NCBI GenBank assembly: GCA_001766815.1
Contig: LYOS01000002.1
Span: 202,377-234,376, forward strand
DNA length: 32,000 nucleotides
Source of the DNA: Candidatus Syntropharchaeum caldarium
Lineage (GTDB): Archaea; Halobacteriota; Syntropharchaeia; Syntropharchaeales; Syntropharchaeaceae
Reading direction: 5' to 3'
Part shown: piece by piece, positions 5,278-23,118 of the stretch
Layout: each line of letters starts with the position of its first letter
Numbering within the stretch: the stretch's first letter is position 1
Notes under the pieces: generated by a model
What the model was told of the DNA's origin: nothing
What the model saw: the letters and a program-made list of their open reading frames with translations, nothing else
Database searches by the model: none
Program-made: the position numbers and the translations under genes

Positions 5278-6528
5278 CTAAAACCCACTTTTATATCGTA
5301 GTATCGCAGCAATTCCGCCAAACGCTCGTCGAAGCTGTCCCCCTTCTTCAAAATCCGATGAGATGATCACAACCTCCGTGCCACGCTCTTCTGCAATTCT
5401 GGATAGCTCAACAACAATATCTATCATATCTGTGAGCTTCAGATTGCTGTTGCATGCCGGACACTTGAGTTCACTCCCAATCTTATTTGTATCCATACCT
5501 GGAAGCAAGTTATAACTCTTCACAAGTGTATATCCGCAATTATCACAGACAAATGATGCTCTGATCTTATTCAACTCCTCTGAGATTATCAGTGTCTCGC
5601 ATGCACCAATCTCAAGGGCTTTTCTGACCTCATCTTCCCCATACGCCACCATTTTTTCATCGTTGACAAGGAGTTTCATGAACCGATCCATCACCTTCTT
5701 CTCCTTCATCAGCTCAAGATCTTCGAGCACACCACTTGCTGCATCAACAAGTTCGTAGAGACCTGACTCATCTGTATAAGAGACATCAAAGATATCCACT
5801 ATTTTCTGGCGCAATTCATGATGCAAAAATTCACCCTTGACAAACTCCTCCTTTGTTGGGCTTGGTCCGCCGATCAGGATACCAAGAAGCTCTTCCCTTG
5901 GCACCGCAAGAAAAACCTCGTTTGCATGTTCTCCGACCCGTGTGTAGAATTCATGCACAGCTATTTCTCGCAAACGACTGAAACGCTGTGCAGACTGTCC
6001 ACCCCGTCTTGTCTTCCCGGGAACGGTTGAAGATGTGTGTTTGAGTGCGTGTATCGTCTTTCCTTTGAGCAGCCCGATTGTTGCCTCGCGCTTATCGAGC
6101 ACCAGAAGTCCATAGGTCTTTTTGTCATGGAGAATCTCTTCCAGTGGTTCTAAAAGAAAAGTGGAGTCACAGTGATAGCGGTAGGATCTTATTGGCTCAG
6201 GAGGTACGACCATTACCGTATCCAGATTGGTCTTATCTCCCCCGACATCGATCGCACCACAGAATATTGCGATACCTGTCTCTGGCGGTTTCTTTATGTA
6301 CTTCAGGCGCGACAGAATCGAGTCGAGCGCACTCTGGACATTTGTGCGGGTTGATTTGCTTTTAATATTTGATGCCTGCCCATGCTCATCTCTCAACTGC
6401 GAGGTAACATCAGATATTTGCTTATCGGGTGGGATATAAACAGTTACAAGCTCTGTACCCCTCCCTGATTTTTCCCTCAGTTCTTCGAGTTTTTTCTTAA
6501 ACTCATACCGATCAAATTCTTCAGTCAT
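5278..6528 (-). CDS. prf1: Peptide chain release factor aRF1
   Basis: 416 aa with the NIKS motif (ASNIKSKS) and GGQ motif (RRGGQSAQRF). Confidence 0.95.
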   Translation of the reverse strand: MTEEFDRYEFKKKLEELREKSGRGTELVTVYIPPDKQISDVTSQLRDEHGQASNIKSKSTRTNVQSALDSILSRLKYIKKPPETGIAIFCGAIDVGGDKTNLDTVMVVPPEPIRSYRYHCDSTFLLEPLEEILHDKKTYGLLVLDKREATIGLLKGKTIHALKHTSSTVPGKTRRGGQSAQRFSRLREIAVHEFYTRVGEHANEVFLAVPREELLGILIGGPSPTKEEFVKGEFLHHELRQKIVDIFDVSYTDESGLYELVDAASGVLEDLELMKEKKVMDRFMKLLVNDEKMVAYGEDEVRKALEIGACETLIISEELNKIRASFVCDNCGYTLVKSYNLLPGMDTNKIGSELKCPACNSNLKLTDMIDIVVELSRIAEERGTEVVIISSDFEEGGQLRRAFGGIAAILRYKSGF

Positions 6529-12690: not shown

Positions 12691-13390
12691 CTATCCCCTC
12701 TCGAAGATCGATATAAAGCTCACCAAATAGTTCATCCTGTTTCAGCCGTACCTCCTTCCTTGACGCAAGAAAGAGGAGTGGTATGTAGGTATCAATCACA
12801 TCTCTAACCTCCATTCCCGATGTGAGCTCAGAAAAAGAGATTCTCTTTTCCTTCTCTCTTTTTTTAAGGATTTCTCTGAGCTTTGAGATCTTACTCTCGA
12901 TATCTTCTTCGTGCGGACACTCACGCACGTTTTTAGTCAGGGCATCATCACACTCAACCCGTGCTTTCTGCCGACGTTGCCGATTGATCTCAACCTTCTC
13001 AGCCTTTTTAAGCTCTGTTATGAGGTCGTCAAGAGTTATTGGGCGCTTTCTCTTCCGTCTGAGCTTTGGATAGACCCGTATAGAATCTGGGGCAGTAAAA
13101 ACCTCACCTTCCATATCTTCTTCAATCTCCAGAAGGTCAGGCTCGAGATCTTCGTCGAGATCTTCCTCCTCCTCTATAAAGAGTGCTTCTGATTTCATCC
13201 GCAGAAGGATTGCAGCGTAAAATAGCGTGCGTCCAGATAGGCGAAGATCAGGCACTTCAACACTCTCAATCCGCTCGAGAAACTTATCCGCCACCTTTAC
13301 GACATCGATCTTCCATGGATCAAACTCGCCCTGCTTTGCAAGATCCACAAGGATCTCTATTGGCTCATCAATGTGAGCGATCTGATCCAT
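12650..13390 (-). CDS. scpA: Segregation and condensation protein A (kleisin)
   Basis: EFDPWKIDVVKVADKFL and RTLFYAAILLRMKSE are typical ScpA N-terminal motifs. The track ORF starts at 13444, but ATG 13390 (MDQIAHID, preceded by GGGAGG..GAGGGG) is the more plausible start. Confidence 0.8.
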   Translation of the reverse strand: MDQIAHIDEPIEILVDLAKQGEFDPWKIDVVKVADKFLERIESVEVPDLRLSGRTLFYAAILLRMKSEALFIEEEEDLDEDLEPDLLEIEEDMEGEVFTAPDSIRVYPKLRRKRKRPITLDDLITELKKAEKVEINRQRRQKARVECDDALTKNVRECPHEEDIESKISKLREILKKREKEKRISFSELTSGMEVRDVIDTYIPLLFLASRKEVRLKQDELFGELYIDLREGIDEGKGRSQDQTGD

Positions 13391-14307
13391 TCGCCCCTCG
13401 CCTCCCGTGTTGTCCCGATGACAAGCCGTCTTATCCCGTTCCATTCTTCAAGCACACCCTGAGCTTCCATCACCTCTCCTTCCAGAACCTGTCCTGCATA
13501 GGTATGCGTGAATGAGAGCACCTCATCAACCTCCTCGTGCTCAACCACAAAGACTGCTGGGCTGTCAAAGGCATGTGATGCATCGGTTACGGTTGCTTCA
13601 ATTCTCCGACGCCCGATTACCCTGCCACGCTCATAGCGGGTATGGTTTTCAGCATCATCCACATAGAGGAGGTCAAAGTATCTCTCTGCGATCATCCCCC
13701 TATTTCCTTTTCGCATTTCATGCTTTAAAAACTCATCGAATGAGATCTCGGGCACACGCTTATTGTATATCTGTTTCCAGAGGTCAGGATCAATATCTGA
13801 GAGTTCGCCATCATGCACAGCGCGATTCAAAACCTCAATTGCATCAAAGAAGCTTTTGCCATAGACGATAAAATCAATATCAGATGAAGGTGTCGCAAGA
13901 TCACAGAGCCACGAGCCCGTAACTCCCATTTTTGAGAGCGGTATGCCACCCTTTCTGAATATATCAACGATCAACCCGATCTCAGGGTTATCAAGCAGGG
14001 TCTGGATCTTGACATCCGGTCTCAAAACCGTCTTTATATCATCAAGCGGGATGCTGTGAATATCTCCACGTATGTATTCAGGCTTTTTTAGCCGCAAAAA
14101 CTCAAATGACTCATCAAAATCAAGTTTATGAAATCTAACGCCATCGAATCGCCTCCTTTCTCCATTATCATGGGGTACGTATCGAAGGAGCCCTTCTATC
14201 GCTGTATCAGATCTGTTGCTATAGCTTACCACCGAAAAGATCCATCCCTCGTTGGTCACAACAAAATCTCGTATTCGAAGATTCAATCTATGCACCTCTG
14301 CAAACAT
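13357..14307 (-). CDS. Pol-beta superfamily nucleotidyltransferase domain protein (COG1665-like), function unknown
   Basis: It carries the NTase motif [23 protein letters not shown] (G[SG]-x-D-x-D). The track ORF extends to 14397 and overlaps the divergent NMNAT gene. ATG 14307 (MFAEVHRL) with TATATAG about 25 nt upstream is preferred. Confidence 0.6.
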
Positions 14308-14345
14308 ACTTTTTAGGTGTTGGTTACTATATAGATAGCGATAGT

Positions 14346-14876
14346 ATGGAGAAGACCAAAGAGCATCGAGGATTGTACATCGGCAGATTTCAGCCATACC
14401 ACCTTGGACACCACATGATACTGACGCAGATTGCCAGAGAGGTTGAGGAGCTTGTAATCTGCATCGGGAGTGCCCAGGTGAGCCATGAACTGAAAAACCC
14501 CTTTACAGGCGGTGAACGAGTTCTTATGGTAAAATCTGCAATCGAAGAGCTGCCGATAAAGTGTTACGTCATCCCGATCATGGATGTGATGCGAAATGCG
14601 ATATGGGTTGCACATGTAGTCTCACTCACACCTGGATTTGAGATTGTTTACTCAAACAATCCCCTCAACAAGCGACTTTTTGATGAAGCAGGGTTTAAGG
14701 TGCGATCTACGGCATTTTACGAGCGTGATGTTTATTCCGGTACAGAGATTCGGCGCAGGATGATAGCTGGTGAAGAATGGGAGAATCTTGTACCTGATGC
14801 GGTATGTAAGGTCATACATGAGTGTGATGGAGTTTCAAGGGTGCAGGATCTCGCCCGATATGATACGGGAAAATAG
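14346..14876 (+). CDS. nadM: Nicotinamide-nucleotide adenylyltransferase (archaeal NMNAT)
   Basis: 176 aa with [10 protein letters not shown] (an (H/T)xGH-type nucleotidyltransferase motif) and SGTEIRRRM (ISSTxxR-like). Confidence 0.9.
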
Positions 14877-15735: not shown

Positions 15736-16209
15736 TCATTTCATTCCAGATAAGACCTCGTATAGCATTTTAAGTGCAGTTTCAGCAGTCATTTCTCTGT
15801 TACTTTTTCTATCGCCTGTAAAATGATACGTTTTTACTATTCTTTGATCTTCTGTTACGATTGCGATATATACCAGCCCAACAGGTTTTACAGGCGTTGC
15901 TCCACCCGGGCCTGCTATTCCCGTTACTCCTATACTCACATCTGCCTCGCTCACTGCTTTTGCACCTTCTGCCATTTCAAGGGCACATTCAGAACTCACC
16001 GCCCCATACCGCTCCAGAGTCGTATCCTTTACACCAATAATCTTCTTTTTCAGCTCATTTGAGTATGTCACGTACGCGCCCAGAAAATAATCTGAACTGC
16101 CCGGAACGCTGGTTATCCTGTATGAAATAAGTCCGCCTGTGCATGATTCTGCAACTGTAAGTTTGAGTTTCTTTTCGCTGAGTAAATCACCTATCGCTTC
16201 CTCTATCAT
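15736..16209 (-). CDS. pncC: CinA C-terminal domain protein / nicotinamide-nucleotide amidohydrolase PncC
   Basis: 157 aa with AESCTGGL, GVTGIAGPGGA and GLVYIA, which are hallmark CinA-C/PncC motifs. Confidence 0.85.
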   Translation of the reverse strand: MIEEAIGDLLSEKKLKLTVAESCTGGLISYRITSVPGSSDYFLGAYVTYSNELKKKIIGVKDTTLERYGAVSSECALEMAEGAKAVSEADVSIGVTGIAGPGGATPVKPVGLVYIAIVTEDQRIVKTYHFTGDRKSNREMTAETALKMLYEVLSGMK

Positions 16210-16232
16210 CTAAAACAGCTCACATCATTTTT

Positions 16233-16240
16233 CTATATAG
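16233..16240 (-). promoter_or_regulatory. TATA-like box for the pncC-like gene
   Basis: CTATATAG lies 24-31 nt upstream of ATG 16209 on the minus strand, consistent with a leaderless or short-leader archaeal transcript. Confidence 0.35.
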
Positions 16241-16321
16241 AACCGTTAGCTATATTGTTAAAAAAAGTTTGGGGGATATTTTGATTTTACCAGCTTGATG
16301 GGTCGATATTGATTGGAATAA

Positions 16322-16423
16322 CGTTTATATGGTGGGGTTGAGAGAAGGGTTTATGATCCGTATGGGTTGAACGAGGAAGAGATTAGGGTGGTGGAGGGAA
16401 AGTATGATAAAAGATATGCCTGA
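16322..16423 (+). pseudogene. Remnant resembling the C-terminal tail of a restriction-modification / type IIG-like methyltransferase
   Basis: A short open frame with no start codon reads RLYGGVEERVYDPYGLNEEEIRVVEGKYDKRYA*. The VY-x-x-YGL-x-EEEI-x-x-VEG pattern recalls the conserved C-terminal tail of many RM/BREX-type N6-adenine methyltransferases. It overlaps the helicase start. Confidence 0.25.
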
Positions 16424-19211
16424 AGAGCTACCAATTGAAGTATTAGAGACTCGATATGGATTGTGGAATTCTTACGTCATGACCCTTAAGAATAAGGGGT
16501 ACAAAGAAATTTGGTATCCACAAATCCAAGCATTTGAAAATGGAGCTTTAGATAACGATAATTTTATATTTATATCCTCTCCAGGCTCGGGAAAAACACT
16601 TGTTGCAGAAGTCATATTAATACACTCATTTTTGAAGTCTACTAAAGCTGGTGCGTACTTGGTCCCTCTTAACGAACTTGCTAATGAGATATATGATGAT
16701 TTTAAAGAAAGAATGGAATATCCGGAAATAGGCATTCACGTTACCAAATCTACGATGGATGATGAAAATTTATCAGAACTTCAGAGATCAAACATCATGA
16801 TAATGACCTATGAGAAGTTTGATTACCATCTTCGCAACCATCCAGAGCTTATTTCAGATTTGGGGGCTGTGGTAATTGACGAGTTTCACATGATCTCAAA
16901 TAAAGATCGTGGAGCAAAACTTGAGCTTATACTTGCACAGTTGATGCACAGGTTTCCTAATATCCGCATCGTTGGTTTATCTGCTGTAGTACCGAATGGA
17001 GACGAGATTAGTGATTGGCTACACGCCAAGCTCTGTGATACCAGTGATTGGAGAAAGAACCCATTATATGAGGGAGTTTATGACCATCGAAACAAAGTGA
17101 TACGATTTTACGATCACCCTGAAAGACTATCCAGTGAAGAAACTATAGGAGATTATGAGCGTAATCCAACACATAATCTAACCATAGATTTTATTATGAA
17201 AGAAATTAGTCGAGAGGGGCTACCCCAAACGCTAATTTTTGTACCTAAAAGAAAAGATGCGAGAGATTTTGCAGCGGAAATCCAAAGATGTCTTACAGAA
17301 GAAATAAAAGAGAGGGTAGATTCATATAAGCTCGATAAGATTGCCACTGACCTTGGAAATTTGGAGGGAAGTGATACAAAGACATTAAAAGGACTTATAG
17401 AAGCGGTGAAAAACGGGATTGCTTTTCATCACGCTGGACTTGGATCTGAGATAAAAAGAGTTGTGATGGATGCATTCAGGAATCAAGATCTTTTGGTCAT
17501 GATCTCAACTACTACACTTTCTGCGGGCGTGAATCTTCCGGCAAAGAGGGTTATTATTTCCGAACCAAGAATCGGAGGAAGGGGTAATTCTGGGAGGGAC
17601 TTAACCGTAGCAGAGTACAAAAATCTTGCTGGAAGGGCTGGGAGACCCAAATACACAGATGAACATGGGGAGTGTGTTATTATCTCTAAAACACCGATAT
17701 TTGCCGAATCATACAAAAATAGGTACATTTTAGCAGAACCAGAGGAGATAGAAAGCAGGATAGATCTTTCTGAAGATTATGGTAGTTTATTAAACTTACT
17801 TCGAGATTATCCATCGGTAGATAAACTTGTAAAGATTATGGAGAAGACATTTTATGGGTACAAAGGTCTCAACCATGAGGATCTTCGATTGAGTGTCGAG
17901 ATAGGAGTGGAAAAGTTAGAAAATTGGGACTTTGTGGAAAGAGATGGAGAACTATTTAATTTAACGGAACTTGGTAAAAGTGTATCAAAACAGATAATAA
18001 ATCCGTTTAGCGCACATATTATACTAAGAAGCTTGCGAAATTACTTAGATAGAGATATCGACCAGGGATTGATACAGGACATTTTACTAACGGTATGTAG
18101 CACTCCAGAATTTGATGAAAGTAACAGATTTTGGAGACCAGGATATTATCCAAACCGAGAAGAGGTGAAAAAGAAATTTGGGTTAGATCCTCTTGATTTA
18201 AAAGAAGTGGATCGGGTCATTTTAACAACCGAAATAATTAAGAAATACATCTCGGAGGAGAGTTACTCTGAAATTTTCAAGATAGAGGGGCTGGATGCTG
18301 AATATTGGGCACCCTCTGACATAAAAGAACGGATCGCCCCGAGGTTTTCCACTACGATTAGAGCGATGCAGCAAATAATAGAAGAGAGCGAGACTGAACT
18401 GCATAATAAATTTGGTGAACTGCTCGATAAACTTGGAATAATGACGTTATATGGAATAAAAGAAGAGCATGTTGATTTTGTCAGGAAAGGTATCACGTCA
18501 GATAGAAATATGATAATATTTCTTGATAAGATTGGTATTGCCGATCCATCAAAACTTTTAAATGTAGATATCAGGTGGTTAAGCGCACAACTGGCTGAAA
18601 AAGCATTAAAGCTTAAACGGCGTGCAGTTTACAATTTGCTTGAAGATCCTGAAAGAGAAAAGGAATTAATACTGTTAGAAGCTTATGAGAAGGGTATTGA
18701 ACTAAGTTTGTTTGAGAACCTCTTTACTTCAAGTGAAAATCAATTTTGGTTCGCTGTTAAGAATATACTAAGCCATATGGATGATATCTTTGAGGTACAC
18801 GATCATCACGTAGGATCAGATTCAATACCAGAGGCAGATGTATATCTCAAAAATGAAGATGGGAGTCTGTTAAAGGGCAGTGATGGGAACCCGATAAAGG
18901 TATGTCTCGAATGTAAATCAACTAGATCACTGGATAAACCTGTAAAAACCAGCACCGCTCTTGAAGTTTTGAAGAAATGCCCGGAAGGGAAATATACTTC
19001 TCGTGTTGTTATTGGGACTCCAAGTTTTGAGGGGGATGCTGGAAGAAGGGCTAAAGAACACGGGATTCTTTTGGTTCCGGTTACGGTCTTCGCTAGGCTC
19101 TTTTTACTTAAGGAAGCGAGTAAAATAGATGCTAAAATTATTGAGACGACCCTACAAAAAACAGGAGAGCTGACAATTGAGAAATTAAACGAGAACTTAA
19201 AAGGTGGTTGA
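16404..19211 (+). CDS. Hel308/Ski2-type SF2 (DExH) helicase fused to a C-terminal PD-(D/E)xK (Mrr-cat-like) nuclease domain
   Basis: 935 aa. Helicase motifs: I SSPGSGKT, II VVIDEFH, III GLSAV, V TTTLSAGVNLPA, VI YKNLAGRAGRP. A WH/ratchet-like middle region follows. The C-terminal roughly 165 aa carry IPEAD(812)VYL ... KVCLE(836)CK(838) ... TPSFEGDAGRRAKEHGILLV. GGTGGAGGG precedes the ATG. The coding sequence is AT-rich relative to the flanks. Confidence 0.85.
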   Translation: MIKDMPEELPIEVLETRYGLWNSYVMTLKNKGYKEIWYPQIQAFENGALDNDNFIFISSPGSGKTLVAEVILIHSFLKSTKAGAYLVPLNELANEIYDDFKERMEYPEIGIHVTKSTMDDENLSELQRSNIMIMTYEKFDYHLRNHPELISDLGAVVIDEFHMISNKDRGAKLELILAQLMHRFPNIRIVGLSAVVPNGDEISDWLHAKLCDTSDWRKNPLYEGVYDHRNKVIRFYDHPERLSSEETIGDYERNPTHNLTIDFIMKEISREGLPQTLIFVPKRKDARDFAAEIQRCLTEEIKERVDSYKLDKIATDLGNLEGSDTKTLKGLIEAVKNGIAFHHAGLGSEIKRVVMDAFRNQDLLVMISTTTLSAGVNLPAKRVIISEPRIGGRGNSGRDLTVAEYKNLAGRAGRPKYTDEHGECVIISKTPIFAESYKNRYILAEPEEIESRIDLSEDYGSLLNLLRDYPSVDKLVKIMEKTFYGYKGLNHEDLRLSVEIGVEKLENWDFVERDGELFNLTELGKSVSKQIINPFSAHIILRSLRNYLDRDIDQGLIQDILLTVCSTPEFDESNRFWRPGYYPNREEVKKKFGLDPLDLKEVDRVILTTEIIKKYISEESYSEIFKIEGLDAEYWAPSDIKERIAPRFSTTIRAMQQIIEESETELHNKFGELLDKLGIMTLYGIKEEHVDFVRKGITSDRNMIIFLDKIGIADPSKLLNVDIRWLSAQLAEKALKLKRRAVYNLLEDPEREKELILLEAYEKGIELSLFENLFTSSENQFWFAVKNILSHMDDIFEVHDHHVGSDSIPEADVYLKNEDGSLLKGSDGNPIKVCLECKSTRSLDKPVKTSTALEVLKKCPEGKYTSRVVIGTPSFEGDAGRRAKEHGILLVPVTVFARLFLLKEASKIDAKIIETTLQKTGELTIEKLNENLKGG

Positions 19212-19233
19212 ATGTTACGCCAATAGCCCTTGA

Positions 19234-19644
19234 ATGAGGTTTAGTATGAAAACATCTGATAAAATTGCAGAAGATTGCCGTGAAAAACGGGAGCGACACA
19301 GTTCTTTTAGAAATTTAGATTCACAATTATCGGTAGTCGAAAAATTAAAAGATGAAGCAGATAAAGAATTGGCGAATTATTCAGAAGAGCTGATTTCAGA
19401 CTGGATACCTATTTATTATTATAACTTAGCATTGAATAGCATTGTTTCCAGAAATCGAAAACAGAATTACTACAATAGCAACACTGGAAATTTCGAAAGA
19501 AGAGTGATAAAAATGGACCCCTTAGAAATAGAATGGTTAAAATTTCTGATACAGATAAGACACATACAAATCCATAATGGGGGTATAGTTGATAAAAAAA
19601 TTTATGGGAGCGATGCGATCATTCTCACATCTAAAAGTCTCTGA
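19234..19644 (+). CDS. Small helical protein with an R-x4-H (HEPN-like) motif; putative effector/partner of the helicase-nuclease
   Basis: 136 aa, or 132 aa from ATG 19246, which has GAGGT 5 nt upstream. It lies 22 nt downstream of the helicase stop on the same strand and shares its AT-rich composition. The motif LIQIR(109)HIQIH(114)NGG resembles the RNxxxHG-type HEPN active-site motif. No other family was recognised. Confidence 0.4.
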   Translation: MRFSMKTSDKIAEDCREKRERHSSFRNLDSQLSVVEKLKDEADKELANYSEELISDWIPIYYYNLALNSIVSRNRKQNYYNSNTGNFERRVIKMDPLEIEWLKFLIQIRHIQIHNGGIVDKKIYGSDAIILTSKSL

Positions 19645-19796
19645 ATATTCAATAGGTTCCTAGTGGACAGCAGATTCGACGATGATCGAGGTAGCGAAAA
19701 AGATTGTTCTGAAAATGAAAACAATAGTAGAAAAAGAAGTAACGAAATCAGATAAATCTGAAATTGAAATATTATTTAAGCCTTAAGGATCCTAAA

Positions 19797-20612
19797 ATGC
19801 CATCAAATCCACTGAACCCCATCAAAAAACCGAAAGGAGGAACTCTATTTCTCCTATTCACAGCCCTGGGTCTCGTTCTCGTCCTTTTTATCTCCATCAC
19901 ACTTTTTGATATGTTCTACAGGCAGGCAGAAGACCTCCCTCGTCTTTTCAGTGCTGCAAGGGATCCTGTTGTTCTGACCGCGATCGGGGTGAGTATCGCT
20001 GCCACGACGTGTTCCACGCTCATTGCATTCACGTTCGGTGTTCCGCTGGCTTATCTTCTTGCAAGAAAGAACTTCCCAGGGAAGAGCCTTGTAGAGGGGA
20101 TAATTGATATTCCCATGATGATACCGCATGTTGTTGCCGGGATCGCACTCTATGGGGTTTTGATGCGCTCTGGGGTGATCGGTGCACCGTTTGATATGCT
20201 TGGTGTTACGCTTGTCGATGCGTTCTCTGGGATTGTGCTTGCGATGCTCTTCATGAGCCTGCCGTATCTTGTCGATACTGCGAGGGAGGGGTTCAGGAGT
20301 GTGGATGAGCGGTTGGAGAATGTCTCGCGCTCGCTTGGGGCGTCTCCCTGGCAGACATTCAGGAGGGTCTCGTTCCCGCTCGCATTCTCATCGATCTACA
20401 ATGGCTGCATCCTTGCCTGGGCGCGGGGGATAAGTGAGTTCTCAGCGGTCCTCATCGTCGCGTACTTCCCGCGGTCTGCCCCTATCCTGATATACGAACG
20501 CTTCACCTCGTATGGCTTATCGAGTTCAAGGCCGATTGCGATCCTCTTTGTCGTGATCTGTCTCGTACTCTTCACACTCCTCAGACTCCCTGAATGGAGG
20601 AGGAGGCGATGA
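19797..20612 (+). CDS. ABC transporter permease, molybdate/tungstate/sulfate (ModB/WtpB/CysT) type
   Basis: It has multiple TM helices and an EAA-loop region (ERLENVSRSLGASPWQTFRRVSFPL). The track start is TTG 19764, but ATG 19797 (MPSNPL) is preferred. ATGA overlap with the ATPase gene. Confidence 0.85.
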   Translation: MPSNPLNPIKKPKGGTLFLLFTALGLVLVLFISITLFDMFYRQAEDLPRLFSAARDPVVLTAIGVSIAATTCSTLIAFTFGVPLAYLLARKNFPGKSLVEGIIDIPMMIPHVVAGIALYGVLMRSGVIGAPFDMLGVTLVDAFSGIVLAMLFMSLPYLVDTAREGFRSVDERLENVSRSLGASPWQTFRRVSFPLAFSSIYNGCILAWARGISEFSAVLIVAYFPRSAPILIYERFTSYGLSSSRPIAILFVVICLVLFTLLRLPEWRRRR

Positions 20613-21670
20613 TCAGGATAAGAGACCTTGAGCGAAGCTGGAGAGAGTTCAGGATAGAGGATATCAACCTCGCGATCGATCGGGGCGAGTACTTTGTGAT
20701 TCTTGGACCGACCGGTGCTGGAAAGACGCTTCTTCTCGAGCTCATAGCAGGATTCTATCTACCGGATGGGGGTGAGATCTGGATCGATGGGGTGAATGTG
20801 ACAGATCTTGCGCCTGAAGAGCGGGGGGTTGGGTTTGTATATCAGGATTACGCGCTCTTTCCACATCTCACCGTGAAGGAGAACATAGAGTTTGGATTGC
20901 GAGTTAAAAAACTTCCAGAACCCGAGATCAGAAGATCTGTATCGGAGATGATGGAGCTACTTGGAATTGAAGACCTCAAAGATCGCTATCCAGATACCCT
21001 TTCAGGTGGCGAGCGTCAGAAGACCGCGATCGCAAGAGCACTCATCCTGAAACCCGATCTCCTACTCATGGATGAGCCGTTCAGCGCGCTCGATCTACGG
21101 ACAAAGCAGAGGATGCAGGATGAGCTGAAGAAGATCCACAGAGAGTCAGGCGTAACGATGGTACATGTGACCCATGATCAGACAGAGGCAATGGTGATGG
21201 CAGATCGGATCGGCGTCATGATGGAGGGGAGGATCGTTCAGGTTGGAGGGGTTCGTGAAGTCTTCAATAAGCCCTTAAACGAGAGGATTGCAGAGTTTCT
21301 TGGGGTTGAGAATGTACTTGAAGGTGTCATTTCAGAGGTAGATGATGGGCTTTCGATCATAGACATTGGAGGTATCGAGATATCTGCTGTCACTGATCTG
21401 GAGGTTGGCTCCAGAGTCAACGCTTTTCTGCGACCCGAGGAGATCACGATATCAAAAGTCTCACAGAAGACGAGTGCGAGAAACAATATAGAGGCAAAAA
21501 TAGAGAAGATCGTGAATCTCGGGGCAGTGGTCAGAATAGAGCTTGATTCTGGACTTGTTGCACTGACAAGCAGGCGATCGGCAGAAGAACTTGGACTTGA
21601 GAGAGGTGTGGAGGTTTATGCCTCCTTCAAGGCGACAGCGGTTCATGTTGTGAGGCGGGGCTCAAAATAA
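20609..21670 (+). CDS. ABC transporter ATP-binding protein with C-terminal TOBE/Mop-like domain (ModC/WtpC type)
   Basis: Walker A GPTGAGKT, signature LSGGERQK, Walker B LLLMDEPFSALD and an H-loop VTHD, followed by a roughly 110-aa C-terminal TOBE-like extension. ATG 20609 overlaps the permease stop (ATGA) and is preferred over ATG 20594. Confidence 0.9.
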   Translation: MIRIRDLERSWREFRIEDINLAIDRGEYFVILGPTGAGKTLLLELIAGFYLPDGGEIWIDGVNVTDLAPEERGVGFVYQDYALFPHLTVKENIEFGLRVKKLPEPEIRRSVSEMMELLGIEDLKDRYPDTLSGGERQKTAIARALILKPDLLLMDEPFSALDLRTKQRMQDELKKIHRESGVTMVHVTHDQTEAMVMADRIGVMMEGRIVQVGGVREVFNKPLNERIAEFLGVENVLEGVISEVDDGLSIIDIGGIEISAVTDLEVGSRVNAFLRPEEITISKVSQKTSARNNIEAKIEKIVNLGAVVRIELDSGLVALTSRRSAEELGLERGVEVYASFKATAVHVVRRGSK

Positions 21671-23085
21671 GTCCGCAAAAAGACTTTAAAATCCTCTTCT
21701 TCAAGAAGATCAAAGATCTTTTTTCCTTCAATAATTGCAAAATCTGCATTTTTGAGGTTCTTACCGAGTGTACCCTTTCTCAAATTCGCACCCAAAAAAT
21801 CTTTTGCATCTGTGTACTTTCTCTCAATATCAACGAGATACCTGCCATCTTTGATATGGATTCCGTAGGTTGCCCCCTCGTGTTTTGATCTAAACTTTGC
21901 TGCATGTCTTCTCTTCCAGACGGGTGGTCCCCAGTGTTTTTTTATGGCTGGTAGCGTTGCAACCTCGAGTTCAAGAAGTATCACGGCATGGTGACGACCT
22001 GCCCAGACGGCGTCCCGATAAACCCTGAAGCCCTCGCGATGGAGTAACTCGGTTGCACCGGTTGCAGAGCGCCTGAGCTGCGGATAGAGTATATCCTCAA
22101 CAACTGGTGGTCTATCAAACGCAATGAAAATAAATCGTGTTCCGCGCCTGGATGCGATCTCGTCAAATTCATCGATTTCAACTGGTGCAGGTTCTTTCGG
22201 AAAGAAGAGATCGATCGATGGCGATTCAAGAAAACGGTGTGCACCATCGATGAACCTGCCAAAATTCTCGATAGAGAGTGCTGCTGCCACATTTCGCATC
22301 GGATCAACAGGATCGATCACAATGAGTGGGTCAGCCCCTTCATACTTTCCGTGCGATTCGATATCGATCCGCATACCCGCTTTCCATGAGTTTGCAGCCT
22401 CTTTTAAAACCTTTAGAAATGAGCCATAGTGTATGACCAGAAGCTCTGTCAGATATCCAGAGAAGCCCTGGCGCTTCAATTCAGAGCCATAAACCCCAAT
22501 ACCCCGCATGAACTGTTTAAGCAGGAGTACCTCATCCTCAAGTCCAGCGATTTTTGAGAGGACGTACTGGTTGTGAAAGGGCGTGCGGTCAACGGCAGAC
22601 TCAATCTTCGCTGGATCGGTGACTGCAAAGCACGGCACAATATCAACCTCGTACTTTCCCCCCATCCTGTCCCCAAATACCGCCTTTATGTATGGGTGCT
22701 CTGCATACTCCTTCTCATAAGATATACAGTAAAACTCCTCGTCACTGTAGTCCTGTTTCACAACGTACTTCCCAATCTCAATCCCGTTAAGCTCAAGCTC
22801 AGCCCTCGTCTGGTTGGCTTCAAAGAGCATGAATAGATCAAGGTCATGCTCACCAGAAACCCACGTGCCGCGGGCAGCAGATCCAACAAGCATCACTTCA
22901 ATCTCAATAAAAAGTGATGCGGCTGCGCTGTATATTTTATCTGTGATAAAACGTGCAAAACGCTCAAGACGTTCTACCTCTGCCTGATCAGGCTTAACCT
23001 TCTTCAGGACTTCTTTGAGAATCTGATGGGCCCGCTGAGATTCGAACTCAGGATCCCCGCCGTGTGAAGGCGATGTCATAACCAA
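21643..23085 (-). CDS. cca: CCA-adding enzyme (archaeal class I tRNA nucleotidyltransferase); start codon unresolved
   Basis: It has the catalytic motif LVGSAARGTW..DLDLF, and length and sequence are typical of archaeal Cca. The first roughly 20 codons of the track ORF (TTG 23085 / ATG 23079) lie inside the tRNA-Val gene. The homologous N-terminus starts near ILKEVL (ATT 23022), and no ATG/GTG/TTG is in frame there. Confidence 0.85.
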   Translation of the reverse strand: MVMTSPSHGGDPEFESQRAHQILKEVLKKVKPDQAEVERLERFARFITDKIYSAAASLFIEIEVMLVGSAARGTWVSGEHDLDLFMLFEANQTRAELELNGIEIGKYVVKQDYSDEEFYCISYEKEYAEHPYIKAVFGDRMGGKYEVDIVPCFAVTDPAKIESAVDRTPFHNQYVLSKIAGLEDEVLLLKQFMRGIGVYGSELKRQGFSGYLTELLVIHYGSFLKVLKEAANSWKAGMRIDIESHGKYEGADPLIVIDPVDPMRNVAAALSIENFGRFIDGAHRFLESPSIDLFFPKEPAPVEIDEFDEIASRRGTRFIFIAFDRPPVVEDILYPQLRRSATGATELLHREGFRVYRDAVWAGRHHAVILLELEVATLPAIKKHWGPPVWKRRHAAKFRSKHEGATYGIHIKDGRYLVDIERKYTDAKDFLGANLRKGTLGKNLKNADFAIIEGKKIFDLLEEEDFKVFLRTYFEPRLTT

Positions 23086-23100
23086 CTAGACCACGGGCCC
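23027..23100 (-). tRNA. tRNA-Val: tRNA-Val (anticodon CAC), no genomically encoded CCA
   Basis: The 74-nt reverse complement reads GGGCCCG-TG-GTCT..GAC-A-TCGCC-TTCACAC-GGCGG-GGATC-CTGAG-TTCGAAT-CTCAG-CGGGCCC-A. This gives a perfect 7-bp acceptor stem, 5-bp anticodon and T stems, and a TTCGAAT T-loop. The anticodon loop TTCACAC gives CAC. The discriminator A is followed by TCA. Confidence 0.9.
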
Positions 23101-23118
23101 AAAAAATTGACAACCACC

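Follow-up and report, generated by a model that had tools for sequence, protein, structure and literature searches.

This work describes a predicted helicase-nuclease encoded by a single gene of Candidatus Syntropharchaeum caldarium. The gene lies in a stretch of 32,000 nucleotides (the window; contig LYOS01000002.1 of assembly GCA_001766815.1, positions 202,377 to 234,376 of the forward strand). The protein very probably unites a Hel308-type helicase ring and an Mrr/FokI-type PD-(D/E)xK nuclease in one polypeptide. We propose that it probably functions as a one-protein defense effector against foreign DNA and not as a housekeeping repair helicase, and that it represents a rare, undescribed family of defense-type helicase-nucleases on a genuine Hel308 scaffold. 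An original prediction, made from the letters of the DNA and a list of its open reading frames (ORFs), had called such a fusion, and its ORF of 935 amino acids (aa) was recovered at exactly the same position. The ORF starts with ATG, with a GGAGG-type Shine-Dalgarno sequence 8 nt upstream. The product is 100% identical to protein P0001 of Ca. Syntrophoarchaeum caldarius, which is named only "ski2-like helicase". Public annotation in general ("ski2-like helicase", "DEAD/DEAH box helicase") omits the nuclease entirely.

A full-length search returned 34 clusters of homologues (911-947 aa, 93-100% query coverage, 30-87% identity), with an abrupt fall in score, from 464 down to 288 bits, at the onset of ordinary Hel308. 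All counts of conservation given below refer to these 34 family members. The whole architecture is kept among them down to 30% identity, which is far beyond chance. The complete superfamily 2 (SF2) motif set that had been read from the translation is borne out by matches to the Pfam models DEAD and Helicase_C. No variation was seen in motifs I, II, III, V and VI, and GSGKT (with K64) and DEFH lie where they had been placed. Invariant residues comprise G61, G63, K64, T65, D159 and E160 in RecA1 and T369, G375, P379, R382, R411 and R414 in RecA2, and the SA(V/T) of motif III is also kept. Given the invariance of these motifs, the motor should be active, and ATPase competence is predicted from their intactness.

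Beyond the RecA core, the likeness to the winged-helix, ratchet and helix-hairpin-helix (HhH) region of Hel308, also part of the original prediction, held up in two ways. NCBIfam models of Hel308 equivalogs align over residues 26-733, and the full-length AlphaFold2 (AF2) model matches whole chains of Hel308/Hjm in Foldseek. This model was built on the 34-sequence family alignment, with a mean predicted local distance difference test (pLDDT) of 90 and a predicted template modeling score (pTM) of 0.84. The template modeling (TM) scores to Hjm/Hel308 are 0.84-0.89, normalized to the target (TMt) of ~700 residues, over ~720-770 columns: 0.88 for Hjm 2zj8 (760 columns), 0.85-0.86 for Hel308 2va8 and 0.87 for Hel308 2p6r, with 750-767 columns across the three. 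The five-domain Hel308 ring (RecA1, RecA2, winged helix, ratchet, HhH domain 5) is thus present at ~residues 25-745 according to Foldseek and NCBIfam. Domain 5 contains the landmarks ...LDKIGIADPSKLL...LKRRAVYNLL, and its residues R701 and I712 are nearly invariant in the family. The best PDB sequence matches are also Hel308/Hjm structures (9b15, 2p6r, 2zj2, 2va8; ≤ 236 bits, residues 23-663/696), followed by ASCC3, Brr2 and Pol-theta, and far lower by HamB of the Hachiman system (83 bits). Membership of the Brr2-Ski2 (Sec63) group was rejected, as no Sec63 Pfam match was found on the protein. The scores against the four NCBIfam equivalog models compared (NF040935, PRK02362, PRK00254, PRK01172) fall below the curated equivalog cutoffs, at 365.6 versus 887, 280.7 versus 1216, 274.6 versus 1200 and 226.2 versus 891.

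The C-terminal tail is what sets the protein apart from canonical Hel308. Canonical Hel308 (~700 aa) covers just 54-78% of the query and the PDB sequence alignments end at residue ~696, so the extra residues have no canonical counterpart. The tail proved slightly longer than first estimated, at ~190 instead of ~165 aa. An AF2 model of residues 762-935, built from 28 tail sequences, reaches a pLDDT of 94.4 and a pTM of 0.91. Its order of elements (helix-helix-strand-strand-strand-helix-strand-helix-strand) is that of a PD-(D/E)xK core, as had been predicted for this restriction-endonuclease-like region. When this model was searched against the PDB with Foldseek, all matches with a probability ≥ 0.9 were restriction-type nucleases: FokI, AF1548, EcoT38I, MspJI and AspBHI. 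FokI came out on top (E 9e-4, probability 1.00, query-normalized TM score (TMq) 0.54). Weaker matches include Hjc (1ob9), Cdn1, Cap4, PspGI, HindIII and Mus81-Eme1, mixed with a few unrelated folds. Among the top nine BFVD viral models, all named ones are annotated "Restriction endonuclease", and one Mrr-domain protein is also listed. The BFVD matches have a probability of ~1.0 and a TMq of 0.41-0.59, with a root mean square deviation of 3.4-4.4 Å for the better ones.

The likeness to Mrr_cat that had been suggested for the tail is seen at the level of the family. Pfam Mrr_cat is matched by 13 of the 28 family tails (best E 2e-5), and family member P0026 carries a precomputed PF04471 match. 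An hhalign comparison of the tail family with a profile of E. coli Mrr and its relatives gave an E-value of 0.0012 over 122 columns, with a probability of just 19%. The register of this alignment pairs FE helix with FE helix, E-C-K with Q-A-K, (I/V)GTPxF..A with ITTSGxTxQA and vLL with vLV. The tail family is therefore only marginally Mrr_cat by sequence, and the predicted fold is clearly that of Mrr_cat. Two other families had been put forward for comparison, and neither gave a match. NERD (PF08378) has no Pfam match at E ≤ 1 in the window tail or in any of the 28 family tails. HamA/DUF1837 has no Pfam or PADLOC match on the tail and is missing from the 50 best Foldseek matches in the PDB.

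As a separate observation, three giant-virus proteins contain a tail-like domain at a probability of 0.57-0.82: A0A1V0SJ58 (Klosneuvirus, 1115 aa), A0A3G5A8T3 (Hyperionvirus, 976 aa) and A0A481Z4U3 (Pithovirus, 1365 aa). Their annotations read 'Superfamily II helicase' or 'type III restriction enzyme, res subunit'. Judged from these model comparisons, fusions of an SF2 helicase and an Mrr-like nuclease may have had an independent origin in giant viruses.

The IPEAD and KVCLECK motifs from which the catalytic residues had been assigned lie at the predicted residues, and the assignment itself needed one revision. E836, C837 and K838 are invariant (34/34), as are F781, K858, G871, P873, F875 and A883. 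D812, originally named as the catalytic acid, was rejected: only 7 of the 34 sequences carry D in this column, which otherwise reads Y (13), E (6), I (3), V (2) and others. The conserved acid is E810, with E in 33 homologues and D in one. It forms a "P-E" dipeptide directly before strand 811-816 and thereby takes the position of the "PD" aspartate. D826, whose 'DG' is aligned by hhalign to the GIDG of Mrr, is not conserved and was likewise rejected. E836-C-K838 sits in the long strand 832-839, next after β2, and the resulting motif is E-x25-E-x-K, with a hairpin inserted between β2 and β3. On the basis of conservation, we propose E810, E836 and K838 as the active-site residues of the predicted nuclease. 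Strand pairing in the model suggests that they cluster in space. The middle 'x' of the ExK motif is an invariant Cys (34/34), which is unusual for a normally variable hydrophobic position. Compared with an 87%-identical homologue, the ratio of nonsynonymous to synonymous substitution rates (dN/dS) amounts to 0.27 over the full gene and to 0.33-0.36 within the tail. The counts are small and the direction is that of purifying selection, which argues that the tail is not decaying.

The helicase core stands apart from housekeeping Hel308. In a neighbor-joining tree of the RecA core (128 sequences, 405 columns), all 34 proteins with the tail group together in 50/50 bootstraps as a single clade, and canonical Hel308 proteins lack the tail. 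The mean distance to canonical Hel308 is 1.39, versus 0.82 within canonical Hel308. On the three points at which the original prediction could have failed, we thus find structural and profile matches of the tail to the PD-(D/E)xK fold, conservation of E836 and K838 among homologues, and a core that groups away from housekeeping, tail-less Hel308.

The family is small. A phmmer search with the tail against 1.84 billion cluster representatives returned just 15 proteins, nearly all of them ~900-aa helicases, and the tail profile found one additional fragment only in a 5.8-billion-protein set. Tail-bearing matches occur in ~6 of 185,579 species-representative genomes, all Halobacteriota: Ca. Syntrophoarchaeum sp., a Methanoperedenaceae metagenome-assembled genome (MAG; the contig end cuts the gene), a Halorarius halobius plasmid, Halorussus sp., a Halobacteriales isolate and a Natrialbaceae MAG. 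A viral origin was rejected, as no tail-bearing relative is present in the 2.9 million viral contigs of IMG/VR. In the Natrialbaceae MAG (JAXHMI010000004.1, locus L043, 7983-10423) the member is broken up into three or more successive ORFs (322, 180 and 237 aa), which is either a pseudogene or a long-read assembly error.

At its other loci the gene is found in accessory DNA. A 91.6%-identical copy from other metagenomes (L006) has only the gene itself in common with the window. Its unrelated flanks encode a type I specificity (S) subunit and MNT/HepT and DUF4258/DUF2283 toxin-antitoxin pairs. One member adjoins a complete type I restriction-modification (R-M) system and a C5 methylase, another a Mutator transposase, an RHS toxin, YhcG and an integrase, and one copy sits between insertion sequence (IS) elements. 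Halorarius halobius carries its copy on a 167-kb plasmid, where the surrounding genes are DpdA, Mom-like, methyltransferase and phage zinc-binding genes, and SLFN_AlbA_2 adjoins the gene at some loci. The member of Halorarum salinum (L012) lies near an Eco57I-type methylase with a PLD-SNF2 helicase, integrases, PDDEXK_4 and an AAA_15 ATPase, and that of Halorussus sp. (L015) near the same methylase/PLD-SNF2 pair and a transposase-integrase. The R-M genes near some homologues are inconsistent in type, strand and distance. A conserved partner gene was rejected: all-against-all BLASTP of the flanking proteins of seven loci gave no significant similarity and revealed no protein common to them, so the system appears to be a single gene. 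Taken as a whole, the family is small, monophyletic and patchily distributed on accessory DNA, and its unit is the single gene.

Two further observations concern these loci. The Eco57I/MmeI-type methylase and the large PLD-SNF2 helicase lie within a few kb of the gene (L012 682-7399, L015 16-5933). This pair looks BREX- or DISARM-like, and its presence at both loci could reflect an island that recurs or a functional link. In L006, an ORF beginning at the stop codon of the helicase (6010-6297) encodes a 95-aa fragment with the MNT-type nucleotidyltransferase motif GIFGSYGRGE. It is a toxin-antitoxin remnant, unrelated to the downstream ORF of the window.

The occurrence of so rare a family in defense islands and on mobile elements makes an "unwind and cut" weapon the most likely reading. 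Hel308 translocates 3'->5' on DNA with a preference for forks and 3' tails, and in the work on 2p6r the translocated strand reportedly passes the Hel308 ratchet and exits beside domain 5. The translocase behavior of Hel308 is also stated in PMC12278908 and PMC10946056. In the mechanism that we propose, the helicase would load on 3' single-stranded tails, forks, or nicked or replicating invader DNA, and the ring would then track 3'->5' on the engaged strand, driven by ATP. As the strand exits past domain 5 and the nuclease follows right after it, the tethered nuclease would be placed to cut the strand or duplex engaged by the motor. By analogy, unwinding would be coupled to cutting within one polypeptide, as the original prediction had suggested, and the protein would act, without a guide, as an "unwind and shred" effector similar to Cas3 or Hachiman. 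DNA ends, replication intermediates and DNA modification are candidate cues for the distinction between self and non-self. A FokI-type or Mrr-type domain possesses a single active site, and a double-strand break would by this reasoning need dimerization or repeated nicking. A wider scenario is offered only tentatively. The protein might be a stand-alone archaeal immune effector, made of a Hel308 ring captured from repair and a restriction-type nuclease, that senses replication intermediates or free 3' ends and shreds them without partner or guide. It might at the same time be a living intermediate on the way from housekeeping Hel308 to a Hachiman-type HamB.

Several points weigh against a defense effector with an active nuclease, and some of them favor other explanations. 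No family member has experimental support in the literature searched, in which the architecture is also undescribed (its coverage is incomplete), and we infer the defense role solely from gene neighborhoods. The tail profile has no match to PDB sequences even at E 10, the Foldseek E-values of the tail are modest (~1e-3 to 1e-4), and the window protein's own tail has no Pfam Mrr_cat match at E ≤ 1. The first acid is Glu and not the canonical Asp, followed by the inserted β2-β3 hairpin, and in the window protein W782 takes the place of the glutamate that many relatives carry in the Mrr-like FE. Both the Glu and the missing α1 glutamate would suit an inert fold, in which the tail of a specialized Hel308 paralogue serves as a DNA-binding or regulatory module. 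Precedents for this are the N-terminal domain of RPB5, whose domains are among the weaker structural matches, and the inactive HamA-like domain of AbpA. The Hachiman paper likewise notes nuclease folds that are inactive in related systems. We nevertheless regard such a role as highly improbable, as E836-C-K838 is invariant and E810 near-invariant down to ~23% tail identity, which is the pattern of an active site, and the tail is under purifying selection.

The same window copy also lends itself to a reading as a repair or fork-processing enzyme, in which a Hel308/Hjm fused to a structure-specific PD-(D/E)xK nuclease would unwind stalled forks and cleave branched DNA. Functional parallels would be Hjm with the Hjc resolvase, or archaeal Hef with its helicase and XPF-type nuclease. 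The helicase is nearest to the repair helicase Hel308 in both sequence and fold. Hel308/Hjm physically interacts with the PD-(D/E)xK resolvase Hjc in repair (PMC10946056), and Hjc and Mus81-Eme1 are among the weaker tail fold matches. The gene's neighbors in the window are housekeeping genes, including the adjacent cinA of the 'competence/damage-inducible' family, which also speaks against a defense island at this locus. We still consider repair unlikely. The best fold matches of the tail are restriction-type nucleases and not resolvases, the family is a separate divergent clade of extremely sparse and patchy distribution, and one copy (L043) is broken into several ORFs. At nearly all other loci the gene is flanked by plasmid, IS or integrase sequences and lies beside R-M or toxin-antitoxin genes, and it moves alone between unrelated flanks with anomalous GC content. 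This mobility could also point to a gene that serves the mobile element itself, in plasmid or provirus replication, recombination or counter-defense, for example by degrading host or competitor DNA. The plasmid copy of Halorarius halobius with its phage-related and modification genes would fit, as would the copies beside integrases, transposases and runs of small unknown ORFs. Defense cargo is common on mobile elements, however, so that context does not separate the two readings. The lack of tail-bearing members in IMG/VR and of any conserved co-occurrence with replication or packaging genes leaves a service to the element improbable, and defense against foreign DNA is the reading that we retain.

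The coordinates of the gene, its parts and the surrounding insert are collected in the table below.

Table. Positions of the helicase-nuclease gene, its predicted domains and motifs, and the bordering genes in the window
Feature	Position (nt)	Strand	Basis or remark
Whole gene, Hel308-type helicase with C-terminal Mrr-like nuclease	16404..19211	+	ORF list; 935 aa + stop
RecA1, ~residues 25-215	16476..17048	+	Pfam DEAD 40-197, E 6e-29
Motif I, GSGKT (K64)	16584-16598	+	Within RecA1
Motif II, DEFH (D159/E160)	16878-16889	+	Within RecA1
RecA2, ~residues 216-450	17049..17753	+	Pfam Helicase_C 336-415
Motifs IV-VI: LIFVP, TTTLSAGVNLPA, YKNLAGRAGRP	inside 17049..17753	+	Within RecA2
Winged helix and ratchet, ~residues 455-690 (approximate boundaries)	17766..18473	+	NCBIfam PRK02362 alignment 26-733; Foldseek
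Hel308 domain 5 (HhH), ~residues 691-745	18474..18638	+	NCBIfam Hel308 model to 733; whole-chain Foldseek
Helical linker from domain 5 to nuclease, residues 746-778	18639..18737	+	AF2 helices 750-762, 767-775
Predicted PD-(D/E)xK (Mrr_cat-like) nuclease core, residues 779-905	18738..19118	+	AF2, Foldseek, family Pfam, hhalign, conservation
Nuclease elements in order: helix α1 (F781); E810; β2; β3 (E836-C837-K838); K858; G871-x-P873-x-F875; A883			
E810 codon	18831-18833	+	Precedes strand β2
E836-C837-K838	18909-18917	+	In strand β3
Short C-terminal helical extension, residues 906-935	19119..19208	+	AF2 helices 910-917, 925-934
Low-GC two-gene insert	16210..19763	.	GC ~0.38; between cinA and ABC-transporter operon
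cinA	15736-16209	-	Pfam; borders insert
ABC-transporter operon	19764-21670	+	Pfam; borders insert
Downstream small gene, disrupted; 136-aa ORF 19234-19644 remains	19234..19786	+	Membership of the system uncertain

Sequence matches and PDB chain alignments give no counterpart of the linker (residues 746-778) in canonical Hel308. G921 of the C-terminal extension is invariant.

The gene lies in a low-GC insert of ~3.5 kb, with a GC content of 0.375-0.387 across 16001-20000 versus 0.41-0.52 (mean ~0.46) elsewhere in the window. Other surrounding genes are ScpA/B, an NMN-adenylyltransferase-like gene, the CCA-adding enzyme and GAPDH, all with housekeeping Pfam domains. The tested neighbors had such domains or, for one ORF, none, and no HamA was found among them. 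Synteny with a related Syntrophoarchaeum contig (L013) spans only 16250-21651, and both outer flanks differ. The borders of the insert showed neither convincing flanking repeats or att-like sites nor an adjacent tRNA. The nearest and only tRNA is 3.3 kb away, and chance probably accounts for a 14-nt 86% repeat at 16202 and 19623. A scan for sigma-70 promoters and terminators showed no excess, the sigma-70 model being uninformative for an archaeon.

The second gene of the insert is intact (183 aa) at 5436-5987 of L013, a 96%-identical contig of Ca. Syntrophoarchaeum sp. Relative to this version, the window copy has an extra A in the A-run 19594-19600 and a TAG at 19661-19663 in place of the TGG of L013. 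Of the downstream ORF, the first ~121 aa are kept, including the Rx4H-like IRHIQIH that is reminiscent of HEPN motifs. The ORF may at most be a candidate HEPN-type partner: it has a faint PADLOC PDC-M10A match only (E ~0.006-0.017), with no Pfam, NCBIfam or PDB match and no Pfam or PADLOC match to HamA/DUF1837, and the gene is not conserved beside other family members.

Elsewhere in the window, tRNA-Val(CAC) (23025-23101, - strand) overlaps the 5' end of the called CCA-adding-enzyme ORF (21643-23085, - strand, TTG start at 23085), so that the true start of this ORF must be further downstream. Between ScpA and the NMN-adenylyltransferase-like gene, a 346-aa ORF (13357-14397, - strand) has no Pfam match at E ≤ 1e-5 and carries a nucleotidyltransferase-like string.

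Apart from CRISPR and R-M, the antiviral systems detected in archaea are few (PMC12988326), so that any candidate enlarges a sparse catalogue. A one-gene helicase-nuclease on the well-studied Hel308 scaffold is a new candidate that is experimentally tractable, with high-confidence models and clear targets for point mutants (K64; D159/E160; E810, E836, K838). The Hachiman authors left the resemblance of HamB to Hel308 unexplained, and the fusion of a true Hel308-type ring to a nuclease bears on how Ski2-like helicases are recruited into immunity. A compact, ATP-driven, sequence-independent DNA shredder from thermophilic or halophilic archaea could also interest tool builders.

Among known systems, the protein has its best sequence and fold match in Hel308/Hjm (2p6r, 2va8, 2zj8), with which it shares the five-domain ring and motif set and from which it differs by the ~190 additional C-terminal residues that are predicted to form the nuclease. 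Hel308 is near-universal and mainly vertically inherited, whereas the tail-bearing family is rare and island-borne. The window protein is not a Hel308 equivalog, as it scores far under the NCBIfam cutoffs, belongs to a separate clade and is not vertically inherited. A survey of archaeal Ski2-like helicases distinguishes the groups Hel308, ASH-Ski2 and Brr2-Ski2 and mentions no nuclease fusion (PMC10946056). Archaeal Hef is a helicase-nuclease fusion with HhH as well, and Mus81 is among the weak fold matches of the tail, but Hef combines a FANCM-like helicase with an ERCC4-type nuclease and is a conserved repair gene.

With Mrr/Mrr_cat (PF04471) and the FokI cleavage domain, the tail shares the predicted fold and the order of FE helix, β2 acid, (E/Q)xK in β3, T/S-x-F and A. 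It differs in E810 for the canonical Asp, in the ~25 residues with a hairpin between acid and ExK, and in the invariant Cys of the ExK, and it is not detectable by Pfam from the window sequence. Mrr moreover has a modification-reading N-terminal domain, in place of which the window protein has the fused helicase. Type III Res and type I HsdR also join an SF2 ATP motor covalently to a PD-(D/E)xK nuclease in defense contexts. Single-protein helicase-nuclease defenses are likewise known in the Snf2-nuclease fusion of Halomonas (PMC11232893) and in DruE of Druantia III (PMC13192584), which share the motor-nuclease fusion and the defense context. Unlike all four, the present protein uses as its motor a Ski2/Hel308 ring, complete with winged helix, ratchet and HhH, and has no conserved methyltransferase or sensor partner; no cognate methyltransferase (Mod/HsdM) was found in the window. 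Cas3, an SF2 3'->5' helicase with an HD nuclease, resembles the proposed logic, in which one protein would thread single-stranded DNA 3'->5' and degrade it. It differs in the type of nuclease (HD versus PD-(D/E)xK) and in its recruitment by Cascade/crRNA, whereas the window system has no such recruitment and no cas genes nearby.

Hachiman (HamA and HamB) likewise pairs a Ski2-/Hel308-like DNA helicase with a PD-(D/E)xK nuclease in defense islands. PADLOC HamB models match the window helicase at E 7e-44, mainly over the RecA core (18-424). HamB is functionally Hel308-like, and the Hachiman nuclease-helicase senses DNA ends or damage (PMC12278908). Hachiman consists of two proteins, however, whereas the window system is one polypeptide with its nuclease at the C-terminus, and the tail is Mrr-like and not HamA/DUF1837. 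The window system is not a member of Hachiman, as it has no HamA and its helicase matches Hel308 (236 bits) far better than HamB (83 bits).

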